DNA of 42,402 nucleotides from a virus: IMG/VR virus record IMGVR_UViG_3300045988_014198; one strand, given 5' to 3'. Both the position numbers and the translations under genes were made by a program. The notes below the pieces were generated by a model. It searched no databases. It was not told where the DNA came from and was given only the letters and a program-made list of their open reading frames with translations. Shown here one piece after another: positions 1 through 42,402 of this stretch; the stretch's first letter is position 1, and each line of letters opens with the position of its first letter.

Positions 1-163
1 CTACGGCGACGGCTCCGGCGACGGCTCCGGCGACGGCTCCGGCGACGGCTACGGCGACGGCTCCGGCTACGGCGACGGCTACGGCTACGGCTACGGCTAC
101 GGCGACGGCTCCGGCGACGGCTCCGGCGACGGCTCCGGCGACGGCTACGGCTCCGGCGACGGC
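1..163 (+). repeat. Coding hexanucleotide/dodecanucleotide microsatellite (GGC-TAC / GGC-GAC / GGC-TCC units), part of repeat protein copy B
   Basis: Only four codons (GGC, TAC, GAC, TCC) are used from nt 2 to 163. The same array type occurs at 39818-40045 and 42324-42402. Confidence 0.9.
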
Positions 164-628
164 ATAAGATCCTTTAACGGCGAACTGGTGTATAACATCG
201 ACGGTGTGCCCACGATCCTCCGCCACGTGCGGGGGAACGTGGCGCACGGCGTGATCCTGAACCGCGACCTGACCACCACGAACTGCTACGTTGCCAAACA
301 GGATAACATCTTTGCCCACGGCGAAACGCTGGCAAAGGCGATGGAGGCTCTTAGGGACAAGCTGTTTGGAGATATGCCGGTGGAGGAGCGCATCGCGGCA
401 TTTTTGAAAGAGACGGAGGACGGCAGGGCATACCCTGCGCAGTATTTTTACGACTGGCATCACCGCCTTACCGGAAGCTGCGACATGGGCCGCCGTCAGT
501 TTGCACGGGACCACGGAATAGACGTGGACAGCGACACCATGACCCTGCGGGAGTTTCTGGCCCTGACCAAGGATGCCTACGGCGGCAGTGTGATCCGGAA
601 GGCGATGGAAAAACTGGAGGCGAAGTAA
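2..628 (+). CDS. G-(Y/D/S) repeat protein, copy B, 3' part (5' end cut by the window edge; its N-terminus is at 42283-42402)
   Basis: Frame 2 is open from nt 2 (YGDGSGDGSG...) to the TAA at 626-628. The C-terminal ~150 aa are about two thirds identical by eye to 39776-40513 (FAHGETL, AMEALR.KLF, WHHRLTGSCDMGR.QFARDHG, AYGG.VIRK). Confidence 0.75.
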   Translation, partial: YGDGSGDGSGDGSGDGYGDGSGYGDGYGYGYGYGDGSGDGSGDGSGDGYGSGDGIRSFNGELVYNIDGVPTILRHVRGNVAHGVILNRDLTTTNCYVAKQDNIFAHGETLAKAMEALRDKLFGDMPVEERIAAFLKETEDGRAYPAQYFYDWHHRLTGSCDMGRRQFARDHGIDVDSDTMTLREFLALTKDAYGGSVIRKAMEKLEAK

Positions 629-1003
629 ATGACCATGCCATACTGGGCTGAACGCCTGCGCGTCCGGCTGATCCACGAGCTGGGCGGCTACACGGACGAG
701 GACGTGGCTGAGGAGATATACCGAGTCGCCCGCGCCACGCCGCCCTGCAAGTCCGAAACGTTCAAACTCGCGGAATATTACGGCGTTGTGAGCCTGGGCG
801 GCACGGCTTTCAATCCGCCGGCCGACCCGCACTTGATCGACAGCGCAAAGGGCGCGGTGATGCACGATATTTCCACGCATCTCAAAAGATCCAACGCCGT
901 CCAGTATCGCGTTATCCCTTGGTGGGATGGTTCGTATGCCCTGCAAGCCACCATCCGCGTCGCCGTACCAGAAGATACCAACGGAAAGCGAGGCACCCCA
1001 TGA
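629..1003 (+). CDS. Hypothetical early protein
   Basis: 124-aa ORF whose ATG directly abuts the upstream stop. Its stop overlaps the next start (ATGA at 1000-1003). No family recognised. Confidence 0.55.
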   Translation: MTMPYWAERLRVRLIHELGGYTDEDVAEEIYRVARATPPCKSETFKLAEYYGVVSLGGTAFNPPADPHLIDSAKGAVMHDISTHLKRSNAVQYRVIPWWDGSYALQATIRVAVPEDTNGKRGTP

Positions 1004-1212
1004 ACGCACGTAACCGCAAACCAATCACCGCCATGTCCCCCTGCCCCCGCTGCGGCATGGACAGCGGCGAGCGCAAGGAATCCGTCAACGTCCCCCTGCG
1101 TTACTACGTCCGCTGCGGCGGCTGCGGCTACACCGTCTCCGGTGACAGCCAGTCCGGTGCCACCAGGAAGTGGAACGCCATGAACGGGAGGCGCCGCCAT
1201 GCAGGTCGGTGA
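1000..1212 (+). CDS. Lar-like zinc-ribbon protein (putative restriction alleviation), copy B
   Basis: The internal ATG at 1000 overlaps the upstream stop. CPRCG...CGGCG pairs followed by A.RKWNAM resemble the Lar family pattern (CPFCG ... C..C ... A..WN.R) seen clearly in 41446-41640. Confidence 0.5.
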   Translation: MNARNRKPITAMSPCPRCGMDSGERKESVNVPLRYYVRCGGCGYTVSGDSQSGATRKWNAMNGRRRHAGR

Positions 1213-2191: not shown

Positions 2192-3626
2192 GATCGTGTG
2201 GAAGCCGCAGGAGCGGCAGGCCGTATTTATGGCAAGGCCGGAATACGAAGCCCTGTATGGCGGGGCGGCGGGCGGCGGCAAGAGCGACGCGCTGGTCATC
2301 GAGGCGCTGCGGCAGGTGCATATCCCGTGGTACAAGGCGCTGATCCTGCGCAAGACGTTCCCACAGCTGCGGGAACTGATCGACAAGACGTTGAATTATT
2401 ACCCCCGTGCGTATCCAAAGGCGCGGTACAACGGCAGCAACCACACATGGCGGTTCCCCTCGGGTGCGCAGATCGTGTTCGGCAGCATGAACCGTCCGCA
2501 GGACAAGATACAGTATCAGGGGCAGGCGTATGACTTTATCGCTTTTGATGAGCTGACGCATTTTACCCAGGAGGAATATGACTACCTGAAATCCCGTAAT
2601 CGACCCAACGGGGCGGGGACACGGGTCTATATGCGCTCCACCGCCAACCCCGGAAACATCGGGCATGGCTGGGTCAAGGAGCGGTTTATCACGGCGGCAC
2701 CGCCGATGCAGCCCATCACGGAGGAGACGGTGTGGTACACGCCGGATGGGAAAAAGCACACGGGACAGCAGCAGCGGATATTCGTACCGTCCTCCGTATT
2801 TGACAACAAGATATTGATGGAAAATGACCCGCTGTATGTGCAGCGGCTGGCCAGTATGCCGGAGGCGGAGCGCAACGCCCTGCTGTACGGAAATTGGGAC
2901 AGCTTTGAGGGGCAGGTGTTTACGGAGTGGCGCAACGACCGGGAACACTATCTGGATCGCAAGCAGACCCACGTCATCGAGCCGTTCCGCATACCGGAGG
3001 ACTGGGTGATCTGGTGCGGGCTGGACTGGGGCTATTCCCGACCATTTTCCGTGGGATGGTACGCGGTGGACAGAAGCAGGCGGATGTACCATATCCGGGA
3101 GTTTTACGGCTGCAACGGTACGCCTAACCGTGGCGTGATGTGGGAACCGACCAAGGTGGCGCAGGAGATACGGCGCATCGAGGCGGACGACCCCAACCTG
3201 CGGGGGCGTGACATCCACCGCGTGGGTGACCCGGCCATCTGGCAAAGCGATGGCACAGAGAGCGTGGGTGCGCTGATGGAACGTGAGCGTGTCTATTTTG
3301 AAAAGGGCGACCATGCACGGATCAACGGCAAGATGCAGATCCACCACCGGCTGGCGTTCGACGCAGACGGCGTACCGATGATGTACGTGTTCGACACCTG
3401 CAAAAACTTTATCCGGACGGTGCCCAACCTGGTCTATGACCAGACAGACGTGGAGGACATCGACACGGACGGCGAGGATCATATCTACGACCAGCTGCGG
3501 TACGTCTGCATGAAAAATCCCATCGGGGCAAGGGACATGGGGCACATCGTGGAGCGGCCCTATTCGCCGCTGGACACGGAGGACGAGTACAGGCCCAGCC
3601 GGTACGCATTTTATCAGACCTATTAA
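2184..3626 (+). CDS. terL: Terminase large subunit
   Basis: 480 aa with Walker A GGAAGGGKSD and Walker B-like YDFIAFDELTHF, plus a C-terminal nuclease-like region with acidic motifs. Position is between terS and portal. Confidence 0.9.
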   Translation: MSEIVWKPQERQAVFMARPEYEALYGGAAGGGKSDALVIEALRQVHIPWYKALILRKTFPQLRELIDKTLNYYPRAYPKARYNGSNHTWRFPSGAQIVFGSMNRPQDKIQYQGQAYDFIAFDELTHFTQEEYDYLKSRNRPNGAGTRVYMRSTANPGNIGHGWVKERFITAAPPMQPITEETVWYTPDGKKHTGQQQRIFVPSSVFDNKILMENDPLYVQRLASMPEAERNALLYGNWDSFEGQVFTEWRNDREHYLDRKQTHVIEPFRIPEDWVIWCGLDWGYSRPFSVGWYAVDRSRRMYHIREFYGCNGTPNRGVMWEPTKVAQEIRRIEADDPNLRGRDIHRVGDPAIWQSDGTESVGALMERERVYFEKGDHARINGKMQIHHRLAFDADGVPMMYVFDTCKNFIRTVPNLVYDQTDVEDIDTDGEDHIYDQLRYVCMKNPIGARDMGHIVERPYSPLDTEDEYRPSRYAFYQTY

Positions 3627-3639
3627 GGGGGAAAAGGAC

Positions 3640-5571
3640 ATGGAAAGATACGGCATCCCCGGCATCGTGCCGGAGGACGGTATGCCGCCGGAGATGGCGG
3701 CGATGCTGCTGGAGCGGACGGACGACACGCCTACCATCACAGAAAAGGACGTGGAGCGCGGGATCGACCTGCTGACGCGGTACAAAAACGGTAAGAACAA
3801 TCTGGAAAGCCGCGTGGTCAACGACGAGCTGTGGTGGGAGCTGCGGCACTGGGAGGGCATCGGGCAGAGCAAGGCCAAGCTGGTGGACAAAAGCGGAAAG
3901 GAAGTCCTCTCCTCCCCTCCCCAGCCAAAGCCCACGTCGGCGTGGCTGTTTAACACCATCCAGAACAAGCACGCAGACGCGATGGACAACTACCCGGAGC
4001 CGGTGGTGCTGCCCCGGGAAAAAAGCGACGAGCAGAGCGCAAAGACGCTGAGCCAGATTTTGCCGGTGGTGCAGGAGTACAACCATTTTGAGCAGGTGTA
4101 CTCGGACAACTGGTGGGAGAAACTGAAGCACGGCACGGCGGTGTACGGTGTGTTCTGGGACAGCCGAAAGGACAACGGTCTGGGCGACATCGAGATCCGG
4201 AACATTGACCTACTGAATCTGTTCTGGGAACCGGGGATCACGGACATCCAGAAGAGCCGCAACCTGTTTATCGTGGATCTGGTGGACAACGACCTGTTGG
4301 ACAGCGAGTACCCCCAGCTCAAGGGCAAGCAGAAGGGCAAGGTCGTGGATGTGAAGGAGTACATCTACGACGACACCGTGGACACCAGCGAGAAGAGCGT
4401 GGTGGTGGACTGGTATTACAAGGTCAAGACGCCCAGCGGCAGGACGGCGCTGCACTACATCAAGTTTGTTGGCTCCACCCTGCTGTACGCCAGTGAGAAC
4501 GATCCGGAATACCGGGAGCGGGGCTTTTACGACCACGGGATGTACCCTGTTGTGCTGGACGTGATGTACCCGGAAAAGGGTACGCCTATCGGCTTTGGGT
4601 ATGTGGCGATCTGCAAAGACCCCCAGCTTTATATCGACAAGCTCAGCGCCAACATTCTGGAAAACGCGATGATGGCGACCAAAAAGCGTTTTTTCGTGTC
4701 GGAAAGTACGGCCATCAACGAGCAGGAGTTTATCGACTGGAACCGACCCCTGGTACACGTCAACGGCGAGATCGGCGACCAGCGGATCAAGGAGATCGTT
4801 ACCCAGCCGCTTTCCGATATCTACGTCACGGTGGCGCAGATGAAAATCGAGGAGATGAAGGACACGGCGGCAAACCGCGATGTGAACTCCGGCGGCACCT
4901 CCAACGTGACGGCGGCAGCGGCGATTGCCGCCTTGCAGGAGGCCGGAAACAAGGCAAGCCGGGATATGATCGCCGCCAGCTACCGCGCCTACACCCAGAT
5001 CAACACGCTGTGCGTGGAGCTGATGCGGCAGTTTTACGACGTAAGCCGCAGCTTCCGCATTACAGGCGAGGGCAACGAGTATCAGTTCGTAGATTTTGAC
5101 AACGCGGGCTTGCAGGATCAGGTGACGGGGCTGGACACAATGGGCAACGAGATGTTCCGTAAGCCGGTGTTTGACCTCAAAATCAAGGCGCAGAAAAAGA
5201 ATCCGTTTTCCCGCATGGAGCAGAACGAGCGGGCCAAGGAGCTGTACTCCCTGGGATTTTTTAATCCGGATAACGCGCAGGCCAGTCTGACGGCGCTGGA
5301 GATGATGGACTTTGAGGGCATCCAGACCGTGCGGGAAAAGGTGATGCAGGGACAGACCCTGTTGAATATGCTGATGCAAATGCAGGCGCAGATCTCCATG
5401 CTGACGGGCGCTATCCTGCCGCAGGAGGGCGCGGGCGATGCACCGGCGCAGACTGGCGGCGGCGCACCTGCGGAGGCCACCAGCCAGCTTGCAAGCGGCA
5501 TTATGCAGGCGCAGACGCCTATGACCGGATACGGGCAGGCATTGGCAAAGCGGAGCACGCCCAGCCTATGA
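3640..5571 (+). CDS. Portal protein
   Basis: 643 aa, directly downstream of terL with an RBS (GGGGGAAAAGG). Size and position are typical of a portal, and the acidic/Gly-rich C-terminal tail fits. Confidence 0.8.
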   Translation: MERYGIPGIVPEDGMPPEMAAMLLERTDDTPTITEKDVERGIDLLTRYKNGKNNLESRVVNDELWWELRHWEGIGQSKAKLVDKSGKEVLSSPPQPKPTSAWLFNTIQNKHADAMDNYPEPVVLPREKSDEQSAKTLSQILPVVQEYNHFEQVYSDNWWEKLKHGTAVYGVFWDSRKDNGLGDIEIRNIDLLNLFWEPGITDIQKSRNLFIVDLVDNDLLDSEYPQLKGKQKGKVVDVKEYIYDDTVDTSEKSVVVDWYYKVKTPSGRTALHYIKFVGSTLLYASENDPEYRERGFYDHGMYPVVLDVMYPEKGTPIGFGYVAICKDPQLYIDKLSANILENAMMATKKRFFVSESTAINEQEFIDWNRPLVHVNGEIGDQRIKEIVTQPLSDIYVTVAQMKIEEMKDTAANRDVNSGGTSNVTAAAAIAALQEAGNKASRDMIAASYRAYTQINTLCVELMRQFYDVSRSFRITGEGNEYQFVDFDNAGLQDQVTGLDTMGNEMFRKPVFDLKIKAQKKNPFSRMEQNERAKELYSLGFFNPDNAQASLTALEMMDFEGIQTVREKVMQGQTLLNMLMQMQAQISMLTGAILPQEGAGDAPAQTGGGAPAEATSQLASGIMQAQTPMTGYGQALAKRSTPSL

Positions 5572-5855
5572 CGGAGGTAACACTGCATCACGGGGACAGC
5601 TGCTCGGTTAGGTGCAAGGGACACGCCACAGGATACCCCGACGTGTGTGCGGCGGTAAGCTGCCTCTTGTACACGGCGGCGGGATGGCTGCACAACACGC
5701 AGGAGGCGGAGCTGGTGCTGGAACGGCTGGACAGCGGGGATGCGTACCTGCGCTGGCACGGCGGGAGGTGGCTGTATGATTTGCTGGAAATCGGCTTTTT
5801 GCAGCTGGAAATGGCAAAGCCGGAGGCGATCTCCGTAAAAATAGAAAAAAAATAA
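5568..5855 (+). CDS. prp: Prp-family (DUF464, ribosomal-processing-type) cysteine protease
   Basis: 95 aa with the motif KGHATGYPDVCAAVS, matching the His/Cys dyad signature GHA....D.VCAAVS of Prp. The start overlaps the portal stop, and the gene lies just upstream of scaffold and capsid. Confidence 0.75.
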   Translation: MTEVTLHHGDSCSVRCKGHATGYPDVCAAVSCLLYTAAGWLHNTQEAELVLERLDSGDAYLRWHGGRWLYDLLEIGFLQLEMAKPEAISVKIEKK

Positions 5856-5905
5856 AAATATTTTTCGTTTTAGGGGTGCGGGAGACCGCGCCCCCTTTCT
5901 ATGAT
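5851..5905 (+). promoter_or_regulatory. Conserved late-operon box 2 (AT tract + TTTTCGTTTTAGGGGTGCG, then N17, then TCTATGAT)
   Basis: Second copy of the 1507-1559 box. It starts at the prp stop codon and precedes the scaffold/capsid genes. Confidence 0.4.
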
Positions 5906-6025
5906 ATAGATACTTCCTCCCTGCCTGCGCGGTGTGACGGCGGTGAAGAACCGCCGCCCGCCGCAAGGGTGGATAGGGGGCGCTGCACGGGAGCGATATG
6001 CCCGCGAATCAAAGGAGGAACAGAT

Positions 6026-6979
6026 ATGTACCTTTACAGGATTTCCCTCTGCCTTTTTGACGGCGAGGGCGGCGATGGGGCGACAGCTGCCACCGCACAG
6101 GGCGAGACACAGGCAAGCTCCGGTACCACCCGCCAGAGCAAATCGGGCGCACTGGCTAACGTCAAGTACGGCAAACAGGCGGAGAGCCAGACGGAAGTAC
6201 AGTCCGACGCCGGGACTGAGGATAAGGTGAAGGACGTGGAGACCACGTCCGACGCGCTGGAGGCCAAGAAAAAGGCTTTCCGGGAGCTGATCAATGGGGA
6301 GTACAAAGATCTGTATACCCAGGAGACACAGCGGATGATCGACCGGCGCTTCAAGGAGGCGCGGGAGACGGAGAAGAGGCTGCAGTCCTACCAGCCGGTG
6401 CTGGATACGCTGATGGAGCGTTACGGCATCGCGGACGGGGACGCAAAGCGTCTGCTGGAGGCCGTGGACAACGACCACGCCTACTGGAGTGAAGCCGCCG
6501 AGGAGGCGGGCATGAGCGAGGAGCAGTACAAGGAGTTCCGCCGTCTGCGGCGGGAGAACGCCGAGCTGCTTCGCGGCCAGCAGATGCATCAGCAGGAGGC
6601 GCAGATCCGGGAACAGAGCGAGAAGTGGTACATGGAGGCGGAGGCCATGAGGGGCAATCCCATGTATCAGAACTTTGACCTTGTGCAGGAGCTGCAAAAC
6701 GACGAGTTTGTGAACCTGCTGAAAGCCGGTACACCGATGGAGCACGCCTACAAGGTGCTGCACTTTGACGAGCTGATGGGCAACGCGGTACAGGCCGCTG
6801 CCGCCAGCACGGAGAAGAAGGTGGCCGACAACGTCCGGGCCAAGGGAAATCGTCCCAGTGAGAACGGCACCAGCTCCAACAGCGCGTTTGTTACAAAGAC
6901 GGATCCCTCAAAGCTGACGAGAGCGGACTTTGAGGAGATCGAGCGGAGAGTAGCAAGAGGCGAACGCATTTCCTTTTGA
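6026..6979 (+). CDS. Scaffolding protein with a predicted cleavable N-terminal propeptide
   Basis: ATG 6026 is preceded by AAAGGAGGAA (6011-6020). The sequence is E/K/Q/R-rich and helical in character, and it sits between prp and the capsid gene. The N-terminus MYLYRISLCLFDGE shares YL-x4-L-x-LFD with the capsid N-terminus. Confidence 0.65.
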   Translation: MYLYRISLCLFDGEGGDGATAATAQGETQASSGTTRQSKSGALANVKYGKQAESQTEVQSDAGTEDKVKDVETTSDALEAKKKAFRELINGEYKDLYTQETQRMIDRRFKEARETEKRLQSYQPVLDTLMERYGIADGDAKRLLEAVDNDHAYWSEAAEEAGMSEEQYKEFRRLRRENAELLRGQQMHQQEAQIREQSEKWYMEAEAMRGNPMYQNFDLVQELQNDEFVNLLKAGTPMEHAYKVLHFDELMGNAVQAAAASTEKKVADNVRAKGNRPSENGTSSNSAFVTKTDPSKLTRADFEEIERRVARGERISF

Positions 6980-7018: not shown

Positions 7019-8302
7019 ATGAACGCAATTTACAACGACCTGTACCTGATGCCGGTGGTGCTGAACCTGTTTGACGCATACACCAATACCACGCTGGATC
7101 CCGGTCTGAGCGACGAGATGAAGGTGTATTACTCTATGCGCCTCATCAACCTCGCCGAGCCGGAGCTGATCCATGACCAGTTTGGCCAGAAGCACCCCAT
7201 CCCCAAGAACAGCGGTAAGACCATCGAGTTCCGGAAGTACGACAGCCTGCCCAAGGCTCTGATGCCTCTGACCGAAGGTGTGACCCCCGCCGGTCAGAAG
7301 ATGAGCATGGGCGTGATCCGCGCCACCATCAAGCAGTACGGCGGTTACATCGAGCTGTCCGACATCCTGGAGCTGACGGCCATCGACAACAACCTGGTGC
7401 AGGCCACCCGCCTGCTGGCATCTCAGGCAGGCCGTACCGCCGACACCATCACCCGCGAGGTGCTGGCTGGCGGCACCAACGTGGTGTACGCCGGTGGCGC
7501 AAAGGATCGCTCTGAGCTGGTGGGCGGCGACAGCACCGCCGAGAACAACAAGTACCTGACGGTGGACGACATCCGCAAGGCTGTACGCGCCCTGAAGGTC
7601 ATGAACGCCCAGAAGATCAACGGCTACTTTGCCGGTATCATCCATCCCGACACCGCCTACGACCTGATGAACGACAAGAAGTGGGTGGATGTGAAGACCT
7701 ACTCCGACCCCGATGGCATCTACGAGGGCGAGATCGGCAAGATCGAGGGTGTGCGCTTTGTGGAGACCACAGAGGCCAAGATTTTCCACGCCGCCCCACT
7801 GAAGATCGAGGACGGCGGCGAGGCAAGCGCCCGCAACCTGACAGTGAAGAGCGCGGCCAGCAAGGTCATTACCATCACCGAAAAGCTCTCCGCCAATCAG
7901 GCCAAGGCGCTGACCGGCAGAGACATTCTGGTGGGCGGCGAGCTGCTGGAGGTGGCGTCCGCTGCTGCCGGTGCTGCCGGTGCTGCCACCATCACCGTGA
8001 AGACCGCGCCTGCCACTACGCCTGCCGCCAGCACCGTGATCTATCCCGGCGAGGGCGGCGCAAACGGACGCGATGTGTACTCTACCCTGATCCTCGGCGC
8101 AGACGCCTACGGCGTGACGGAGCTGGAGGGCGGCGGCCTGCAGCACATCGTCAAGCAGCTGGGTTCCTCCGGTACGGCTGACCCGCTGAACCAGCGTGCC
8201 ACCGCAGGCTGGAAGCTGACCAAGGTGGCGGAGCGTCTGGTGGAGCAGTACATGGTGCGCATCGAATCCGCCTCTACCTTTGAGAGCGGCGCGATGAACT
8301 GA
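7019..8302 (+). CDS. Major capsid protein (N4-gp56-like family pattern)
   Basis: 427 aa. KNSGKTIEFRKY...LTEGVTP.G...IKQYGGYIELSD...QAGRTADTITREVL.GGTNVVYAGG matches the pattern I recall for the N4-gp56 major capsid family. A good RBS (GGAAAGGAG) is present. Confidence 0.85.
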   Translation: MNAIYNDLYLMPVVLNLFDAYTNTTLDPGLSDEMKVYYSMRLINLAEPELIHDQFGQKHPIPKNSGKTIEFRKYDSLPKALMPLTEGVTPAGQKMSMGVIRATIKQYGGYIELSDILELTAIDNNLVQATRLLASQAGRTADTITREVLAGGTNVVYAGGAKDRSELVGGDSTAENNKYLTVDDIRKAVRALKVMNAQKINGYFAGIIHPDTAYDLMNDKKWVDVKTYSDPDGIYEGEIGKIEGVRFVETTEAKIFHAAPLKIEDGGEASARNLTVKSAASKVITITEKLSANQAKALTGRDILVGGELLEVASAAAGAAGAATITVKTAPATTPAASTVIYPGEGGANGRDVYSTLILGADAYGVTELEGGGLQHIVKQLGSSGTADPLNQRATAGWKLTKVAERLVEQYMVRIESASTFESGAMN

Positions 8303-8867: not shown

Positions 8868-9881
8868 ATGACAAGAACGATCCCGCTGAAAATACAGAAT
8901 GAATACATCGCCGGTGACAAGGTGCTGATCGGCGCGGCGGGAAGCCACAATGATGTGGTGCTGCGGATGGAGTTCTCCCCCATGTGGGAGGGGCTGGCGA
9001 AAACGGTACAGTTCTGCGATGCGCTGGGCGAGAGCACCGTGGAGGTGCTGCTGGCTGCACAAATGCTGGAGAGCGATACCACCAACGTCTACCTTGTGCC
9101 GGTGCCGAATGGAGCGAAAAAGTACGCGGGAGATATGGCGCTTGCCATCAAGGGGGCAGAGGCTTCCGGCGGCAAAGAGGCGCGGGCGACTACGGCGGTA
9201 TACGGTACCTTTACGGTGGGCGAAAGCAAGTGGAGCGGCAGCGCAGAAACGGAACAGGATGTGCCGCCTACACAGGCAGCGCAGATGCAGACACAGATCG
9301 AAGTTATCATCGGAACGATAGCGGATGCACGATCCGCCGCCGAAGATGCCGAGAAAAGCAAAAATGCCGCCAAACAAAGTGAAATCAGCGCGGCATATAA
9401 CGCCAATGCCGCAAGAGAAAGCGGAACGAAAGCGGCGGCAAGCGCGGAAAGCGCCAAACAAGATGCCGTTTCAGCAAAAAGTGACGCCGTTTCATCCGGA
9501 CAGTCCGCAGCAAAGGCGGAAAGCGCCGTTGGGAAATACCCGTATTTAGGCGGGGACGGATACTGGATGCTATGGGATCCGGAAAGCGGCAGCTTTTACA
9601 AAAGCAGCATCAGCGGAAAAGGAAAAACCGGCCCGACGGGAGCCACCGGGCAACAGGGCATCCCCGGCAAGGACGGTGCTCCGGGCAAGGACGGTGCTCC
9701 CGGCAAGGACGGTGCGCCCGGTGAAAAGGGCGATACAGGCCCAGCTGGCGCGTTGGTTGAGGCGGATGGCATGTATGGTTTTCGGATCGATGAGACCGGA
9801 CATCTGATCCTGTCTTATACGGGGAACGTACCTCCGAATCTCTCCATTAACAGCGCCGGTCATTTAATACTGACAGTGTAA
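8868..9881 (+). CDS. Collagen-like tail fibre / appendage protein
   Basis: Contains a G-x-x triplet run, GKGKTGPTGATGQQGIPGKDGAPGKDGAPGKDGAPGEKGDTGPAG. It is preceded by an A/S/E/K-rich helical stalk (SAESAKQDAVSAKSDAVSSGQSAAKAES). Confidence 0.7.
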   Translation: MTRTIPLKIQNEYIAGDKVLIGAAGSHNDVVLRMEFSPMWEGLAKTVQFCDALGESTVEVLLAAQMLESDTTNVYLVPVPNGAKKYAGDMALAIKGAEASGGKEARATTAVYGTFTVGESKWSGSAETEQDVPPTQAAQMQTQIEVIIGTIADARSAAEDAEKSKNAAKQSEISAAYNANAARESGTKAAASAESAKQDAVSAKSDAVSSGQSAAKAESAVGKYPYLGGDGYWMLWDPESGSFYKSSISGKGKTGPTGATGQQGIPGKDGAPGKDGAPGKDGAPGEKGDTGPAGALVEADGMYGFRIDETGHLILSYTGNVPPNLSINSAGHLILTV

Positions 9882-26744: not shown

Positions 26745-27830
26745 TTACAAATTACTTGCAGATTCAACGGCGGAGATGAGCTTTTCCGCGTCTGCATGGA
26801 TGTAAATGTCCGCCGTGGTGGAGAAGTTTGCGTGACCGATGATCTTCTGCAAGATCTCCGGCTGGATGCCTGAACTTCTCGCCCATGTTGCGTAAGTGTG
26901 GCGCGTGGCGTGGGGTGTGTGCTTTGGGATACCGAGCTTTTCCAGCAACGGATAGAAATCACGTTTGCGGTAATTGGCGGGGATGCGCTGCCCATCGTAG
27001 CCGGAAATGAGCAGGTCGCCGGTGGCGCGGGAGGCGAAGTATGCAAAATACTTCCTACCATCCGGGCGGATGGGAATGACGCGGTCTCTACCGGCTTTTG
27101 TCTTTTCGCCGCCGATCACATACGATTCATGGTAGTCTTTCAGCGGCAGGGAGAACAATTCACCGATGCGCATACCGGTGTAAATCATCATAAGGGCGAT
27201 TTTGGCGGCGTCGGAGCCGTCTTTTTCCAATAGCGCGATCTCGTCATCTGTAAAGATGGCTTTTTCTTTTTTTACCTGCTGGGGCAGCTTGACGTATTTG
27301 GCAAAGTCGGTTGTGGCGATCTCCTCACGGACAGCCCAGCGGGCCATCTGGGTCATGAGCTGCTTGTATTTGGACAGCGTGGAGTTGGACTTTGCCATGT
27401 TGCTGTCGATGATGGCTTGAAAGTCCTTTGTGCGCAGGTCGCGGAATTTCTTGTTGTGCAGCGGAGCACATACGGCGTAGGCTCTGTCATAGGATTCTAC
27501 GCCCTTCTCCCCTATCTCCCGATAGTGTTCGGCTTTCCATTCGGTGAACACTTCGGAAAAGGTCATATTGAACTTTTCCTCCAGCGGACGGCCTGCCAGC
27601 CGATCCAGTGCGGCCAGCGCGTCCGTCTTCCGCTCGTAGTACCCGATATATACGCCGTCTTTTGCGGCGACCCAAGGCCGGGACCGCCGCCCACCCAGCT
27701 TATACACCGTGCCGGACCCGTTGGGGCGTTTCAGCGCCTTGCGGGAGGCCGTGACCTGCTTTTTCCCGCAGATATGGCAATAAACGGCATCCGGTACCAG
27801 GGGGACGCCGCATTTAATACAAGTAGACAT
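26745..27830 (-). CDS. int: Tyrosine integrase with N-terminal zinc ribbon
   Basis: 361 aa. The C-terminal HATRHTYATWA...LQKIIGHANFSTTADIYIH carries the R-H-R-Y catalytic signature. The N-terminus is CIKCG...CHICG. RBS is GTGAGGTG. Confidence 0.9.
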   Translation of the reverse strand: MSTCIKCGVPLVPDAVYCHICGKKQVTASRKALKRPNGSGTVYKLGGRRSRPWVAAKDGVYIGYYERKTDALAALDRLAGRPLEEKFNMTFSEVFTEWKAEHYREIGEKGVESYDRAYAVCAPLHNKKFRDLRTKDFQAIIDSNMAKSNSTLSKYKQLMTQMARWAVREEIATTDFAKYVKLPQQVKKEKAIFTDDEIALLEKDGSDAAKIALMMIYTGMRIGELFSLPLKDYHESYVIGGEKTKAGRDRVIPIRPDGRKYFAYFASRATGDLLISGYDGQRIPANYRKRDFYPLLEKLGIPKHTPHATRHTYATWARSSGIQPEILQKIIGHANFSTTADIYIHADAEKLISAVESASNL

Positions 27831-38302: not shown

Positions 38303-38959
38303 ATGAAAGTTTTATGTGCGTGTGAGGAAAGCCAAGAGGTGTGCAAGGCGTTTCGCGAGTTGGGGCATGAAGCATATTCCTGCGACATACAGGAGCCGTC
38401 TGGCGGACATCCGGAGTGGCATATCCTCGGTGACGCTCTCGAAGCCGTTAAAGGCGGGAGCGTGACTACGATGGACGGACAAGTTCATGAAGTCGGTAAA
38501 TGGGATTTGCTGATTGCACATCCACCTTGCACACATCTTAGCGTGTCCGGTGCGCGTTGGTTCGCGGAAGGGAAAAAGCCTTTGAGTTTGCGTTATGACG
38601 CAGCTGCGTTCTTCCTTCGTTTTATTGAAGCAGATATACCGAGAATTGCAGTCGAGAACCCGGTGAGTGTTATGTCATCGCTGTATCGGAAGTCGGATCA
38701 GTGTGTTCACCCGTGGCAGTTTGGGCATTTGGAAGAAAAAAGCACCTGCCTGTGGTTGAAGGGGCTTCCGCTGCTGGAAGAAACGAATAATGTGAAAGAA
38801 GAGTTTTTGAAGTTGCCAGATCGGGAGAGAAATAGGTTGCATTGGCTTTCTCCAAGTAAAGAAAGAGCAAAAGCCAGGAGCAAGACCTTCCCCGGCATTG
38901 CCAAAGCAATGGCGGAGCAATGGGGCGGAGACATTAGGGACTGTGAGGGGAGACAATGA
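38303..38959 (+). CDS. Compact DNA cytosine-C5 methyltransferase-like protein
   Basis: The ATG follows TTGGAGGTTGAG. LLIAHPPCTHLSVSG (PC motif IV) and IAVENP (ENV motif VI) are present. The N-terminal KVLCACEESQ replaces the usual FxGxG. About 218 aa with no long target-recognition domain. Confidence 0.6.
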   Translation: MKVLCACEESQEVCKAFRELGHEAYSCDIQEPSGGHPEWHILGDALEAVKGGSVTTMDGQVHEVGKWDLLIAHPPCTHLSVSGARWFAEGKKPLSLRYDAAAFFLRFIEADIPRIAVENPVSVMSSLYRKSDQCVHPWQFGHLEEKSTCLWLKGLPLLEETNNVKEEFLKLPDRERNRLHWLSPSKERAKARSKTFPGIAKAMAEQWGGDIRDCEGRQ

Positions 38960-39402
38960 ACAACGATTTAATGTTTTCGTCAAAATCTGAAATGTGGGAG
39001 ACCCCGCAAGCCTTCTTTGACGACCTCAACAACCTCTTCCAATTTACGCTGGATGCCTGCGCAACGCCAGAAAACGCGAAATGCGAACGCTATTTCACCC
39101 CGGAGATGGACGGACTGAAACAGGACTGGGACGGCGTTGTGTGGTGCAATCCCCCATACGGACGCGGCGTTGGGGCGTGGGTAGAGAAAGCGCATCGAAC
39201 CGCCGAGGAATCAGACGCAACGGTTGTTATGCTGCTTCCGGCGAGGACGGATACCGCTTGGTTCCACGATTACTGCTACAACGACAAATATGCAACCATC
39301 AATTTCGTGCGTGGGAGATTAAAGTTCGGCGGAGAAAAGAACAGTGCCCCATTCCCAAGCATGGTGGTGATTTTTCGCCGCCCCGCGAAAGCGCTACATT
39401 AG
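38956..39402 (+). CDS. Phage Dam-type DNA N6-adenine methyltransferase
   Basis: WETPQAFFDDLNNLFQFTLDACA...N.....YFT...DGL.Q.W.G.VWCNPPYGR...WV.KA.......VVMLLPARTDT.WFH......A..INFVRGRLKF: the NPPY motif and the full family pattern are present. Confidence 0.85.
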   Translation: MNNDLMFSSKSEMWETPQAFFDDLNNLFQFTLDACATPENAKCERYFTPEMDGLKQDWDGVVWCNPPYGRGVGAWVEKAHRTAEESDATVVMLLPARTDTAWFHDYCYNDKYATINFVRGRLKFGGEKNSAPFPSMVVIFRRPAKALH

Positions 39403-39488: not shown

Positions 39489-39779
39489 ATGAACAACAAT
39501 CAGGACTACATCGTTCGCTGTGACCGCGCAGGCGTGTTTTTCGGCAAGATCAAAGAGAGAAGCGGCTCCGAGGTCACCATGACCGAGGTGCGTAAGCTGT
39601 GGAGCTGGGACGGCGCGTGTGCCGTGGAGCAGCTGGCGCAAGACGGCACAAAAGCACAGGGCAACTGCCACTTTACCGTGACGATCCCGGAAATGACCGT
39701 GCTGGGCGCGATCCAGATCATCCCGTGCACGGATGATGCATCGGTATCGCTTCGCGGCGTAAAGGAGTGGAAGAGATGA
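39489..39779 (+). CDS. Small conserved phage protein, cassette copy A, first gene
   Basis: 96 aa. The ATG follows AATCAGGAGGAA. YIVRCDRAGVFFGKI...VRKLWSWDGACAVEQLAQDGTK is about two thirds identical to 41990-42286. It resembles a widespread small early phage protein family whose name I cannot confirm. Confidence 0.65.
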   Translation: MNNNQDYIVRCDRAGVFFGKIKERSGSEVTMTEVRKLWSWDGACAVEQLAQDGTKAQGNCHFTVTIPEMTVLGAIQIIPCTDDASVSLRGVKEWKR

Positions 39780-40513
39780 CGCTTGATGATAAGATCAAGG
39801 CCTTTCTGACTGTGAGCTACGGCTCCGGCGACGGCGACGGCTACGGCTACGGCTACGGCTACGGCTCCGGCGACGGCTCCGGCGACGGCTCCGGCGACGG
39901 CTCCGGCGACGGCTCCGGCGACGGCGACGGCTACGGCTACGGCTACGGCTACGGCTACGGCTACGGCTACGGCGACGGCTCCGGCGACGGCTCCGGCGAC
40001 GGCTCCGGCTACGGCTCCGGCTACGGCTCCGGCGACGGCTACGGAATTAAGCGATTCAACCGGGAAATGGTCTATCAAATTGACGGGATAAACACGCTGA
40101 TTCGTTCCGTGCGCGGAAACACTGCGCACGGGGCAATCGTGAATAATGATTTGACGACCACGCAGTGTTACATCGTCAAGCAGGGCGACATTTTCGCACA
40201 CGGCGAAACGCTGCGCGAGGCAATGGAAGCACTGCGAGAAAAGCTATTTGAGGATATGCCGGAAGATGAACGCATCGACACGTTCCTGCGTGAAACAGAC
40301 CGAGAGAAAGCATATCCGACGCAGTATTTTTACGAATGGCATCATCGCTTGACCGGATCGTGTGACATGGGACGAAAGCAGTTCGCCCGTGACCACGGTG
40401 TTGATCTTGAGCGCGGCGTGATGACACTTACGGAGTTTTTGGAGTTGACAAAAAGTGCTTACGGTGGCGACGTGATTCGAAAAGTGATTAGTAAGATGCA
40501 GGAGGTCGAGTGA
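39776..40513 (+). CDS. G-(Y/D/S) repeat protein, cassette copy A, second gene
   Basis: The ATG overlaps the upstream TGA. It has a short N-terminal segment, a 76-aa G-(Y/D/S) array and a ~165-aa unassigned C-terminal domain. Paralogous to 42283-42402 plus 2-628. Confidence 0.75.
   Translation: MTLDDKIKAFLTVSYGSGDGDGYGYGYGYGSGDGSGDGSGDGSGDGSGDGDGYGYGYGYGYGYGYGDGSGDGSGDGSGYGSGYGSGDGYGIKRFNREMVYQIDGINTLIRSVRGNTAHGAIVNNDLTTTQCYIVKQGDIFAHGETLREAMEALREKLFEDMPEDERIDTFLRETDREKAYPTQYFYEWHHRLTGSCDMGRKQFARDHGVDLERGVMTLTEFLELTKSAYGGDVIRKVISKMQEVE
39818..40045 (+). repeat. Coding microsatellite array (GGC-TAC/GAC/TCC), 76 codons
   Basis: It contains 5 consecutive GGCTCCGGCGAC units and 7 consecutive GGCTAC units. 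Only four codons are used. Confidence 0.9.
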
Positions 40514-40908: not shown

Positions 40909-41453
40909 TGGAACGTCTGACAAAACGCGGCACCGACGGACAGGCAATGATGGACTGTGAGAAGTGCAAAGCGGATTGGACGGGTAAGCATGGCAAGCCG
41001 ATGGCTGACTGCACCGCGCTGTACTGCCGCAATCGCCTCAAGGATCGCCTCGCCGCCTACGAGGACAGAGAGTGTGCGCCGGAGGAAGTTCTACCGAAGG
41101 ACAAGGCAGACGAGATTGCGCTGAAGCTCATGCGTTTTGCTGATTTAGAAAGCCTTTGCAACTATACCCGCCTGAGGGAGCTTGCCGAGGCCGACAAGGA
41201 TGGTCGGGTGGTGGTGCTACCGTGCAAGGTGGGCGATACGGTGTGGATGTACGGAGAAGATTTCGGGACAGTTCTTCCGTACACAATCGACTTGATTTCT
41301 TTTGTGGGCAAAGGCTGCGGTTATTCTGCAAACTACAATCACAATGGTGAACTGATAGATGGCATTGATTTTGAAGATGACGACATCGGCAAGACCGTAT
41401 TCCTGGCCCGCGAGGAGGCGGAGAAAGCGTTGGAGGAGATGAAGGATGACTAA
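40908..41453 (+). CDS. Hypothetical protein (MERLTKR-type N-terminus)
   Basis: 181 aa from an ATG overlapping the upstream TGA. Cys-rich N-terminal part and acidic C-terminus. No family recognised. Confidence 0.45.
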   Translation: MERLTKRGTDGQAMMDCEKCKADWTGKHGKPMADCTALYCRNRLKDRLAAYEDRECAPEEVLPKDKADEIALKLMRFADLESLCNYTRLRELAEADKDGRVVVLPCKVGDTVWMYGEDFGTVLPYTIDLISFVGKGCGYSANYNHNGELIDGIDFEDDDIGKTVFLAREEAEKALEEMKDD

Positions 41454-41640
41454 CTTAAAACCGTGCCCGTTTTGCGGAGGTGAAGCGGTCATAAGCGTCG
41501 ACCCGGATGCAGTGGAGGACACGCAAGGCCGACGTTGGGCGTATAATGCCGTGTGCATTAGGTGTTGTGCAACGTCAGGACTTACGTATACGCCCCGAAA
41601 AGCGAAAGAAGCATGGAACAGGAGGGCTGACAATGGCTGA
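41446..41640 (+). CDS. lar: Lar-family restriction alleviation protein, copy A
   Basis: 64 aa. LKPCPFCGGEAV......C..CCA.....T...A.EAWNRR is the canonical Lar family pattern. Confidence 0.75.
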   Translation: MTNLKPCPFCGGEAVISVDPDAVEDTQGRRWAYNAVCIRCCATSGLTYTPRKAKEAWNRRADNG

Positions 41641-41944
41641 ATACATTGACAAGGAAGCGTTTAAGGAAAGCGTCGAGGAGCGTTATTGCAAGCCGTGCAA
41701 GGCGGATGGAAAAGACCACAACGGATGCTGGTGTCGTGCCTGTTGGGTTGACGATATGATCGATGAGGTAGAGTGTTTCCAGCCCGCTGATGTTGCTCCG
41801 GTGGTACGCTGCAAGGATTGCAAGCACCGTGACATGGGTGTCTGCCTGAAAATTTACTCGGACGGCAACGTACACTCAGCGGCATGGCAGAAGCGAAAGC
41901 CGGAGGACTGCTGCTCCTACGGCGAACGAAATCAAAACCAGTAA
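41633..41944 (+). CDS. Hypothetical Cys-rich protein
   Basis: 103 aa with 11 Cys (CKPC, CWCRAC, CKDC, CC). It overlaps the lar stop. Confidence 0.45.
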   Translation: MAEYIDKEAFKESVEERYCKPCKADGKDHNGCWCRACWVDDMIDEVECFQPADVAPVVRCKDCKHRDMGVCLKIYSDGNVHSAAWQKRKPEDCCSYGERNQNQ

Positions 41945-41989: not shown

Positions 41990-42286
41990 ATGAATGAGAA
42001 GAACGAGCAGATGTACATTGTCCGCTGCGACCGCGCAGGCGTGTTTTTCGGTGGCATCAAGGACCGACGCGGCACGGAAGCGACCATGACCAATGTGCGC
42101 AAGCTGTGGTACTGGAACGGTGCCTGCGCCATCGAGCAACTGGCTATGGACGGCACCAAGACCCCCGGTGACTGCAAGTTTACTGTGACGGTACCGTTGA
42201 TGGAAGTGACCGGGGTGATCCAGGTGATCCCCTGCACCGAAAAGGCCACGGCATCCATCAGCGGCGTGAAGGAGTGGAAGCGATGA
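41990..42286 (+). CDS. Small conserved phage protein, cassette copy B, first gene
   Basis: 98 aa with RBS ACGGAGGAAAG. Paralogue of 39489-39779. Confidence 0.65.
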   Translation: MNEKNEQMYIVRCDRAGVFFGGIKDRRGTEATMTNVRKLWYWNGACAIEQLAMDGTKTPGDCKFTVTVPLMEVTGVIQVIPCTEKATASISGVKEWKR

Positions 42287-42402
42287 GCGCGCTGGATGAG
42301 AAAGTCAAAGCATTTTTGTCTGTAAGCTCCGGCTCCGGCTACGGCTCCGGCTACGGCGACGGCTCCGGCGACGGCTCCGGCGACGGCTCCGGCGACGGCT
42401 AC
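42283..42402 (+). CDS. G-(Y/D/S) repeat protein, copy B, 5' part (3'-truncated by the window edge; continues at 2-628)
   Basis: The ATG overlaps the upstream TGA. MSALDEKVKAFLSVSSGSGYGSGYGDGSG... parallels the copy A N-terminus MTLDDKIKAFLTVSYGSGDG. Confidence 0.7.
   Translation, partial: MSALDEKVKAFLSVSSGSGYGSGYGDGSGDGSGDGSGDGY
42324..42402 (+). repeat. Coding microsatellite array (start of the copy B array)
   Basis: Same four-codon vocabulary. The window ends inside it. Confidence 0.9.

Follow-up and report, generated by a model that had tools for sequence, protein, structure and literature searches.

The window analysed here, a gut phage contig of 42,402 nt (IMG/VR record IMGVR_UViG_3300045988_014198), carries two versions of a two-gene cassette, A followed by B, with both cassettes and the neighbouring methyltransferase and Lar genes on the plus strand. 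In cassette 1 the first gene, A1 (39489..39779, 96 aa), lies downstream of an AGGAGG ribosome-binding site and encodes a DUF6948 protein predicted to be an Sm-like small beta-barrel. The second gene, B1 (39776-40513, 245 aa), begins at a start codon overlapping the A1 stop (ATGA) and comprises three parts: a conserved N-terminal helix (MTLDDKIKAFLTVSY, 39776..39820), an array of 38 Gly-X dipeptides in which X is Tyr, Asp or Ser (39821..40048; predicted disordered, DNA of the form (GGC-KMC)n), and a C-terminal alpha/beta domain of ~155 aa from an uncurated family (40040..40513). In cassette 2, A2 (41990..42286, 98 aa, also DUF6948) is joined by ATGA to B2, whose 5' part (42283..42402; N-terminal helix and array start) runs off the window end and whose 3' part (1..628) holds the remaining Gly-X array, to ~166, and the C-terminal domain. 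All four reading frames lie at the coordinates given in the original prediction, and the stop/start overlap that it described is present at both junctions.

Window positions 1-52 are identical to 42351-42402 over all 52 nt, duplicating the window end, and the window is thus a circularly closed contig with its join inside the B2 repeat. B2 does continue past the window end as had been proposed, but not from position 2; the proper join is 42283-42402 + 53-628. The product is 231 aa with this join and 248 aa with the 2-628 join, both in frame, and the assembly cannot fix the true repeat length. A2-B2 runs uninterrupted across the join in independent contigs (e.g. L081, L084, L091, L097 and L161-L166), so B2 is a real, intact gene.

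Two DNA methyltransferase genes lie directly upstream of cassette 1 (38303..39402), as originally reported, with profile matches at 38303-38959 (phrog_757, E 6e-69) and 38956-39402 (Pfam Dam PF05869, E 1.5e-31). A Lar-type zinc-ribbon gene is located between the cassettes (41446..41640; Pfam PF14354 E 3.9e-10; phrog_599 E 1.7e-12) and a weaker Lar-like zinc-ribbon ORF downstream of cassette 2 (1000..1212; PF14354 E 2.6e-5, 24.8 bits against a cut-off of 28.6; phrog_599 E 3.9e-7). Lar-like genes are therefore downstream of both copies, as claimed, but at a distance of 0.4-0.9 kb rather than directly after them. Scanning the window for Rfam families and tRNA genes gave no match.

The small first gene, earlier taken as unassigned, belongs to a Pfam family. 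Profile searches place A1 and A2 in PF22253 (DUF6948) at E 1.3e-22 and 1.4e-22, respectively, each matching the full-length model at 80.1 bits, well above the curated cut-off of 27, and PF22253 is precomputed on all 120 homologues listed. DUF6948 is a family without assigned function, and a full-text literature search for DUF6948 returned no paper naming it. The AlphaFold2 model of A1 has a pLDDT of 94.3. The best 50 Foldseek matches of this model in the PDB are all Sm/LSm or Sm-like proteins, with probability 0.98-1.0, target-normalised TM 0.37-0.66 and E 6e-3 to 4e-2. The model shows the bent five-stranded beta-barrel of the Sm fold; it is without the canonical Sm N-terminal helix and has an extra helix between strands 3 and 4. 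At the sequence level, Pfam gave A no match but DUF6948 at E<=1, with no Sm1/Sm2 motif or LSM/Hfq profile, and PDB searches with A as a single sequence and as a profile returned no Sm or Hfq protein even at E<=10. As modelled, the gene A product is a small Sm-like beta-barrel, with the similarity at fold level only. The protein is not basic (pI 6.6 for A1 and 8.8 for A2), and the exact A2 protein sequence is present in 363 blocks of a public collection. The phrog_18306 profile matches both the Gly-X array and DUF6948, which hints that a fused A-array form may exist.

The N-terminal ME..IK.FL.V pattern of B is kept across family representatives, and in the B1 structure model it includes a helix at residues 3-11 (pLDDT 88). 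The strict Gly-X repeat proposed from the letters of B1 is borne out: residues 16-91 contain 38 Gly, 14 Tyr, 12 Asp and 11 Ser, TRF reports a period of 6 with 38.2 copies, and residues 15-89 have pLDDT <50, i.e. predicted disorder. Its codons are GGC for 37/38 Gly, TCC for 11/11 Ser, TAC for 14/14 Tyr and GAC for 12/12 Asp. In the arrays compared, every second residue is Gly in 99% of cases, while the X position is filled by Ser (38%), Tyr (34%) or Asp (26%). Arrays carry a net negative charge with no Lys or Arg and essentially no basic residues; Ala, Pro, Lys, Arg, Glu and Gln are avoided, with Ala almost absent and Asp abundant. Where C-terminal domains are at least 86% identical, the array can be as short as 12 aa or as long as 88 aa, and over a wider set of B proteins it spans 5 to >100 residues with no conserved order. 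Selection on the array keeps its composition, and keeps neither its order nor its length. In the proteobacterial clade Ser is drawn from both AGY and TCY codons, which argues for selection at the protein level. A RiPP precursor, with a leader helix and a Gly/Ser/Cys core, was considered and rejected, there being no modifying enzyme nearby and a folded domain following the array.

The C-terminal domain of B1 is well folded in the model (pLDDT 86-96) and belongs to a family of at least 794 clusters at E<=1e-3. Residues invariant in the family are, in B1 numbering, D103, T107, H142, G143, T145, K156, W188, H189, LTGSC192-196 and R200. The domain was originally said to fit no family, and it matched nothing above noise in sequence and profile searches of Pfam, PHROGs, NCBIfam, PADLOC and the PDB; PHROG matches to B are confined to the low-complexity array. 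The Foldseek comparison proposed with the original prediction leaves it unplaced as well, with no PDB match to the B model at E<=0.001. Against BFVD the model matches three gut-phage proteins at family level, one of them misnamed 'Lamprin', and gives a weak match to a 519-aa protein labelled E3 ubiquitin ligase (E 2.2e-4, 14% identity). A HicB/UPF0150-like domain, prompted by the FAHGxTxxEA segment, was unsupported by profile scores: UPF0150 was touched by 2 of 37 members (best E 0.089) and DUF5678 by 2 of 37 (best E 0.042), all below cut-offs. The names 'fibroin heavy chain-like', 'Lamprin' and 'colicin E3' that annotators have placed on family members are low-complexity artefacts, not homology; likewise the source names 'colicin E3', 'fibroin' and 'ribonuclease inhibitor' reflect low complexity or, in Riemerella, a leucine-rich-repeat N-terminus. 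In that Riemerella phage the C-terminal domain is joined to the leucine-rich repeats and there is no A gene. Conversely, two loci (L128 and L148) have helix and array without the C-terminal domain.

The pairing of A with the array is conserved well beyond the window. A Gly-X ORF follows the DUF6948 gene in 132/132 gut-phage loci with enough downstream DNA and in 65 of 67 proteobacterial-type loci, 54 of these 65 ORFs being pure repeat proteins. Six annotated or isolated phages from outside the gut clade were inspected as well, and each has such an ORF after A (Ralstonia NK-7, Pectobacterium Koroua, Iodobacter phiPLPE, Vibrio IKEMa6-1, Chlorobiaceae CV-1-33 and a spring-water podovirus). In the first four of these the protein consists of nothing but the array; in gut Clostridia phages it sits between the short conserved N-terminal helix and the folded 155-aa domain. 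The two genes are joined by ATGA or by 13-nt overlaps. The coupling is thus not incidental, being kept in every relative where it is testable. Judged from these gene arrangements, the conserved partner of A is the Gly-X array and not the C-terminal domain, which is the main revision of the original prediction, and the 155-aa domain is a lineage-specific addition to the array. The two genes are not strictly co-evolving, since one locus (L080) carries an A at 58% identity next to a B at 86% identity. Literature searches for Gly-Tyr repeats in phages and for 'fibroin heavy chain-like' proteins found nothing, and the obligatory Gly-X neighbour of DUF6948 appears to be previously undescribed.

The pair resembles Sm, LSm and Hfq proteins with Gly-rich tails in combining a small bent beta-barrel with a disordered Gly-rich repeat. 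It differs from them in that A has no sequence similarity to these proteins, the repeat is encoded by a separate, translationally coupled gene, and the array is a strict dipeptide repeat that is acidic-aromatic rather than basic. The eukaryotic SmD1 and SmD3 proteins bear Arg-Gly tails. Silk-fibroin-type (Gly-Ala/Ser/Tyr)n repeats are alike in alternating Gly with small or aromatic residues, but the arrays described here have almost no Ala and abundant Asp, and are predicted to be disordered.

From these comparisons we tentatively put forward, as a fair possibility short of a probable one, that early in infection the acidic-aromatic repeat is bound by an oligomer of the Sm-like protein, for which it would be a multivalent ligand resembling nucleic acid, with the C-terminal domain tethered to it. 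A would form an Sm-type oligomer, and the array would serve as its multivalent ligand by mimicking flexible single-stranded nucleic acid, Asp taking the place of phosphate and Tyr that of stacked bases. It might then gate nucleic-acid binding by A, in the manner of the Hfq acidic tail, or link A rings to one another in a larger assembly; in the window lineage it would tether to the complex the C-terminal domain, probably an effector that acts as an enzyme or binds a ligand. Precedents come from Hfq, whose disordered acidic tail imitates nucleic acid and autoregulates the Sm ring (PMC5606850), and which in Acinetobacter has functional GGFGGQ repeats (PMC11617691). The module may act on ssDNA or RNA transactions early in infection. 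Early recombination and replication regions house it: one locus reads RecT-A-B-SSB (L118), and Erf, SSB, RecE or Bet lie near the module in Koroua, phiPLPE and CV-1-33. Such a position carries little weight, since temperate phages keep most of their accessory genes in these regions. Against the ligand model also count the purely fold-level likeness of A to Sm proteins, its lack of basic character, and the loose co-evolution of the two genes seen in L080.

The array may instead be, as originally suggested, a counter-defence decoy, in which a polyanionic Asp/Tyr tract, alone or on A, titrates a host restriction or nucleic-acid-sensing defence protein and the C-terminal domain supplies a second anti-defence activity. 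We regard this as somewhat unlikely. The methyltransferase and Lar genes surrounding the cassettes suit such a role, as do the translational coupling of A2-B2-Lar, with a 13-nt overlap, in type-2 genomes, the net negative charge of an array without Lys or Arg, and a strongly mosaic region with two alternative versions, as in arms-race genes. PADLOC, however, gave no match to a defence system, and proteobacterial phages have recombination genes beside the pair rather than methyltransferase or Lar. A composition kept across hosts of several phyla also argues against one specific defence target. The acidic DNA mimics Ocr and ArdA share net negative charge and a methyltransferase/Lar vicinity with the array, by analogy only; no homology to them was found, and they are rigid and folded, unlike a Gly-rich coil.

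The wide range of array length and the unconserved order would also be expected of a passive linker, a flexible, slippage-prone tether without binding, in which case A and the C-terminal domain would carry the function. The monotonous codon use would suit fast turnover by slippage, and some arrays shrink to only 5-9 residues, which fits a linker better than a multivalent ligand. The domain is, moreover, rich in invariant polar residues (D103, H142, T145, K156, H189, S195, C196 and R200) and could hold a Cys/His/Asp enzyme or metal site. This account is nonetheless doubtful: there is nothing to tether in the 54 pure repeat proteins of the 65 proteobacterial-type loci or in NK-7, Koroua, phiPLPE and the Vibrio phage, the composition of X (Ser, Tyr, Asp, Asn) is kept across phyla and across two Ser codon families, and the six residues named above are avoided.

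Quite unlikely, in our estimate, is a two-component, multivalent scaffold in which the (Gly-Ser/Tyr/Asp)n array, as a sticker-spacer chain, and a ring of the Sm-like protein offering several sites for aromatic residues would form a condensate or gel in the infected cell with the C-terminal domain as client; the same estimate covers a dual use of the array, in which the Sm-like protein would bind the unusually unstructured (GGC-KMC)n mRNA as its RNA ligand while the peptide translated from it would compete for the same site.

The repeat might, lastly, act as nucleic acid, translation of (GGC-KMC)n being secondary to a role such as attachment site, iteron array or RNA platform for the Sm-like protein, which we consider improbable. 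Sm rings typically read short periodic RNA motifs. Of the Gly codons in arrays from widely differing hosts, 91-96% are GGC, vs 43% in the window's other genes, GCC is observed 7 times vs ~293 expected, and the repeat RNA is less stably folded than all 200 shuffles (z = +4.1). A GC-rich (KMGCCG)35 tract in Iodobacter phiPLPE has been described as non-coding and as a possible attachment site (Comeau et al. 2012, PMC3391216). It has the same hexamer unit and the same place, directly after the DUF6948 gene gp84, but here it reads as an unannotated ORF for (Gly-Ser/Tyr/Asp)n, homologous in position and composition to the window arrays. The window repeat agrees with that tract in unit and location, but it is coding and is not adjacent to integration machinery; the window integrase (26745-27830) is 12 kb from the array, ill-suited to an attachment site. 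Against a nucleic-acid role also stand the in-frame fusion of the Gly-X frame to the conserved helix and C-terminal domain in hundreds of clusters and the use of both AGY and TCY for Ser. One array (L132) alternates GGT and GGC, so GGC is not obligatory.

Each cassette is one copy of this widespread early-region module, and the two differ clearly. The predicted identity of roughly two thirds agrees with 70% between A1 and A2 (E 2e-52) and 67% between the B C-terminal domains (E 6e-84). With dS ~1.0 for A and saturated for the B domain, dN 0.22-0.24 and dN/dS ~0.2 between the cassettes, both are, on these substitution rates, under purifying selection. Of the 'old duplication kept intact' originally proposed, age, divergence and intactness of both copies are upheld by dS and dN; duplication is not, relatives carrying a single cassette. 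Both cassette types occur within 4-5 kb in none of 108 IMG/VR loci, and a second A gene is absent from all other loci with A except one ENA scaffold (L159). Each type has orthologues 92-100% identical in single-cassette phages, vs 67-70% between the two copies, and the copies are neither shared by relatives nor each other's closest relatives, as tandem duplication within the genome would have them. Since the surveyed relatives carry one cassette, the distribution points to acquisition of the second version by recombination as likelier than in-place duplication.

The original view that the double cassette is not an assembly artefact also holds. L159 has the same double arrangement; it is nearly the window's length and may be the same assembly, and so offers weak independent support, while cassette 2 is contiguous in many other contigs. 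That the double cassette is a chimera of two co-occurring phage strains is hardly credible, even though the contig join falls inside a low-complexity repeat, the array is the break point in 24 of 108 related contigs (22%) and, L159 apart, both cassettes occur together in no other surveyed genome, because the sequence from cassette 1 to the start of cassette 2 is uninterrupted with 1.5 kb of unique genes between, L159 repeats the arrangement (though possibly as the window's own assembly), a contig from a different ENA sample (L160, 42,167 nt) has the exact A1 and the same upstream genes although it breaks in the B1 array, and single-cassette relatives place the two cassettes differently relative to flanking genes.

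A strictly conserved gene pair found in phages of Firmicutes, Proteobacteria, Chlorobi and other hosts appears to have gone undescribed, its first member being a DUF and its repeat ORF mostly left unannotated, called in an incorrect frame, or given the name of silk or lamprin. The Gly-X array breaks short-read assemblies and gives shadow ORFs and spurious annotation; the window itself ends in one. Numbering at least 794 clusters, and having a confident fold but no structural relative, the family of the C-terminal domain merits curation of its own. Cultured carriers (Pectobacterium Koroua and Ymer, Ralstonia NK-7 and Iodobacter phiPLPE) make the function of the pair directly testable. A scaffold or dual use of the array, if true, would be a new kind of phage organiser arising from a coding microsatellite. 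If the array is the ligand or regulator of an Sm-like ring, the pair would represent a trans-encoded version of the Hfq tail mechanism, and a rare case in a bacterial virus of function residing in a pure dipeptide repeat.

The four reading frames of the two cassettes that were named in the original prediction are all present in the ORF list and by direct translation. Cassette 1 comprises A1 (39489-39779, 96 aa) and B1 (39776-40513, 245 aa), and cassette 2 comprises A2 (41990-42286, 98 aa) and B2, whose start lies at 42283 and which continues past the window end. Each A gene is preceded by a good ribosome-binding site, the expected ATGA overlap is seen at both A/B junctions, and A and B are strictly translationally coupled. 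The copies are clearly diverged, as had been judged by eye, with 70% identity between A1 and A2 (E 2e-52) and 67% between the B1 and B2 C-terminal domains (E 6e-84). Likewise borne out was the strict Gly-X repeat, which in B1 occupies residues 16-91 (38 Gly, 14 Tyr, 12 Asp, 11 Ser). Positions 1-52 of the window are identical to 42351-42402 (52 nt); the window is a closed circle with its join inside the Gly-X array of B2. Joining B2 at base 2, as proposed earlier, keeps the frame and counts 17 codons twice; the proper gene is 42283-42402 plus 53-628, giving 231 aa. Because independent contigs hold A2-B2 and the downstream genes unbroken, B2 is a real gene, and its only uncertain feature is the length of the array, which is an assembly estimate since the join lies within it.

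Among curated families, A belongs to Pfam DUF6948 (80 bits) and the C-terminal domain of B to none. A literature search found no papers naming DUF6948. The AlphaFold2 model of A is confident (pLDDT 94.3) and predicts an Sm-like fold: the best 50 Foldseek matches in the PDB are all Sm, LSm, archaeal Sm or Sm-like structural-genomics entries (probability 0.98-1.0, target-normalised TM 0.37-0.66, E 6e-3 to 4e-2). Pfam profile and PDB sequence searches gave no Sm/Hfq sequence signal, and A is therefore called Sm-like in fold only; judged by sequence, it does not qualify as an Sm or Hfq member. Residues conserved across clades are R10, A14-G15-V16, F18-G19, G26, E28, R35, W40, A50, G53, I75 and P79.

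The B model consists of an N-terminal helix (residues 3-11, pLDDT 88), an array modelled as disordered (residues 15-89, pLDDT below 50) and a confident alpha/beta domain (pLDDT 86-96) in which a helical bundle comes after five strands. The family of this domain includes 794 clusters (50% identity) at E<=1e-3 and 447 at E<=1e-10. At least 10 residues of (Gly-X)n follow a conserved N-terminal ME..IK.FL.V helix in 92 of 108 full-length representatives. In another representative, P0132 (272 aa), a signal-peptide-like N-terminus and a Tyr/Asn/Ser/Gly-rich region stand in place of helix and array. The invariant residues are D103, T107, H142, G143, T145, K156, W188, H189, LTGSC192-196 and R200, and so many fixed polar residues suggest a catalytic or metal/ligand-binding site. 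The earlier failure to place the domain agrees with searches of Pfam, PHROGs, NCBIfam, PADLOC, PDB sequences and Foldseek-PDB, which returned no match; BFVD gave three family-level matches and a weak one (E 2.2e-4) to a 519-aa protein whose name is unreliable.

The gene content is that of a temperate tailed phage of ~42 kb, with an integrase (26745-27830, minus strand), an antirepressor, Sak annealing protein, YqaJ exonuclease, NinB/Orf, DUF1064, two methyltransferases, Lar and a second Lar-like ORF, and both small and large terminase subunits. The neighbourhood had been described accurately, and the module lies among early recombination, replication or modification genes. In four relatives carrying only the type of cassette 2 (L161, L162, L164, L165; ~5294-6250) the end of B2 shares 13 nt with the Lar-like gene, so that A, B and Lar are coupled as three; in the window B2 and the Lar-like ORF are separated by an inserted ORF of 124 aa (629-1003). 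The relatives come from human faeces, and their contigs are mostly binned with genomes of Oscillospiraceae or other Clostridia, metagenome bins being weak host evidence. Short in-frame-sized tandem repeats also occur in the structural-gene region (9663-9721, 18 nt x 3.3; 7959-7987, 9 nt x 3.2), unrelated to the cassettes. A host-directed decoy or counter-defence role, as first proposed for the array, has this gene neighbourhood as its one line of support and is rather unlikely.

The adjacency of the two families that was anticipated for related phages holds widely. Among gut Clostridia phage loci that extend 150 nt or more beyond the A gene, a Gly-X ORF follows A in 132/132 and the C-terminal domain is present in 122/132. 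The pair also persists, overlapping by 13 nt, in distant relatives (45-59% identity) whose phages are quite different. DUF6948 is also found in phages of Ralstonia, Pectobacterium, Dickeya, Iodobacter, Vibrio and Chlorobiaceae. In all six non-gut phage records examined the ORF after DUF6948 encodes a (Gly-Ser/Tyr/Asp)n protein of ~80-140 aa, five being essentially pure array without the C-terminal domain; a spring-water podovirus has a looser Gly-rich version. Proteobacterial-type IMG/VR loci have the array in 65 of the 67 with enough sequence, and in 54 of those 65 the protein is pure repeat and begins with a conserved MSKLNKP or MSYLDKP. In the two lacking it (L239, L241) the frame runs from the end of A into a sequence that includes ...CLGMFGLGLYIYAGEDLPE... 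and may be a single-strand annealing protein. Variant architectures occur as well: two gut loci (L128, ~3270-3430; L148, ~3260-3430) have helix and array, then a stop or short unrelated tail, without the C-terminal domain, and in L112 (4750-5456) B is divided over two ORFs, one of 84 aa with helix and array and one of 151 aa with the C-terminal domain. In Riemerella phages the domain sits behind a leucine-rich repeat and the A gene is absent; the 'ribonuclease inhibitor' of phage CRP6 (L151, OQ789245, 3794-4402) joins such an N-terminus to a distant B-domain homologue (28% identity), in a module of Erf, a YqaJ-like protein, a 98-aa protein ending DDDDLPF and a replicative helicase, without a DUF6948 gene. 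From these distributions, A plus array form the invariant core, and the 155-aa domain is an addition in gut Clostridia phages. That the array is a passive linker is contradicted by the pure-repeat proteins and is improbable. A PHROGs profile, phrog_18306 (242 positions), matches the Gly-X array at 52-138 and DUF6948 at 157-237, which hints at fused proteins and could alternatively be a low-complexity artefact.

The closest literature record is the 'GC-rich repeat' of Iodobacter phage phiPLPE (L154, EU876853), which sits directly after gp84, its DUF6948 gene, and was described in 2012 as a (KMGCCG)35 repeat that does not code for protein and might be an attachment site (PMC3391216). The repeat ORF (~1190-1430) is unannotated in GenBank. 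Gene 25 of Chlorobiaceae phage CV-1-33 (L156, 2774-3019) is annotated in the wrong frame, as 'MAMAMALAMA...'; its Gly-X frame reads GYGDGDGSGDGSG....

Array DNA has the form (GGC-KMC)n in the window (39821-40048, 42331-42402 and 1-166) and in 146 arrays of the related loci L001-L158. GGC accounts for 68/69 Gly codons in the window's arrays, where Ser, Tyr and Asp have TCC, TAC and GAC as their sole codons; in its other genes GGC makes up 43% of Gly codons and TCC 20% of Ser codons. Across the 146 arrays GGC is 96% of Gly codons, and GCC (Ala) occurs 7 times against ~293 expected with independence of the two variable bases. With GCC avoided, GGCGCC and GCCGGC palindromes are avoided too. Some use TCT, TAT and GAT throughout, and in L132 GGT and GGC alternate in a 12-nt unit. 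Proteins that share at least 86% identity in the C-terminal domain have arrays of 12 to 88 residues, in which alternate positions are 99% Gly and X is Ser (38%), Tyr (34%) or Asp (26%) in unconserved order; some B proteins go down to 5-9 residues. The array is disordered, acidic-aromatic and length-tolerant. Codon monotony would fit a DNA- or RNA-level element, which is nonetheless very unlikely given the in-frame fusions and the two Ser codon families: the Gly-X frame is fused to conserved domains on both sides, and Ser is encoded by TCY only in gut phages and by both AGY and TCY in the proteobacterial clade, which argues for selection at the protein level. The repeat RNA (39816-40044, 76% G+C) folds less stably than 200 of 200 dinucleotide shuffles (MFE -89 vs mean -108 kcal/mol, z = +4.1). 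The pattern of codon use and composition in the arrays is read as concerted evolution by replication slippage together with selection on amino-acid type.

Short-read assemblies break systematically at the array. Among related IMG/VR contigs, 24/108 end within ~250 nt upstream of the C-terminal domain, and many retrieved via gene A stop just past A. Breaks in or beside the array affect L006, L018, L019, L022, L035, L079, L090, L092, L102 and others among the 24; further contigs (L119, L123, L125, L160, L171, L189) start or stop there. A 231-aa 'AVAGAV...' ORF (39506-40201, minus strand) is the array's opposite-strand shadow; translation in other frames gives 'ATAPAT' or 'LRLRRR', and gene mis-calls are possible.

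The original prediction of an old duplication kept intact stands as to age: dS between the cassettes reaches ~1.0 in A and is saturated in the B domain, with a dN of 0.22-0.24, which places both copies under purifying selection. In-place duplication kept through the lineage is not upheld, both types occurring within 4-5 kb in 0/108 IMG/VR loci. Each single-cassette locus is of type 1 or type 2, and orthologues of each type are far closer than A1/B1 to A2/B2 (B1-type identity up to 93%; proteins 100% identical to A2 in 363 blocks of the collection). In these relatives type 1 follows the methyltransferases and type 2 a homologue of 41630-41944, slightly different positions in a strongly mosaic region. 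When every locus carrying an A gene was scanned, a second one turned up only in ENA scaffold L159 (42,427 nt), which shares the double arrangement and is possibly the same assembly. The window is read as two diverged versions probably combined by recombination; an assembly chimera is scarcely credible, cassette 1 being contiguous into cassette 2. In L080 (849-1726) a recombinant-looking pair has A 58% identical to A1 and a B C-terminal domain 86% identical to B1, which suggests that recombination may occur between A and B, perhaps within the array.

The closest functional analogy is with Sm proteins bearing low-complexity tails. The acidic tail of Hfq gates nucleic-acid binding (PMC5606850), and in Acinetobacter Hfq Gly-rich repeats matter (PMC11617691). 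A would oligomerise as other Sm-fold proteins do, and the array would serve it as a multivalent, nucleic-acid-like ligand, either gating ssDNA or RNA binding by A, as the Hfq tail does, or cross-linking several A rings to build a larger complex. A further role of the array in this lineage would be to tether the C-terminal domain, probably an enzyme or a ligand-binding domain. Taken as a whole, this mechanism is a tentative possibility. No described system is known to combine an Sm-like A, a Gly-X array and the B domain.
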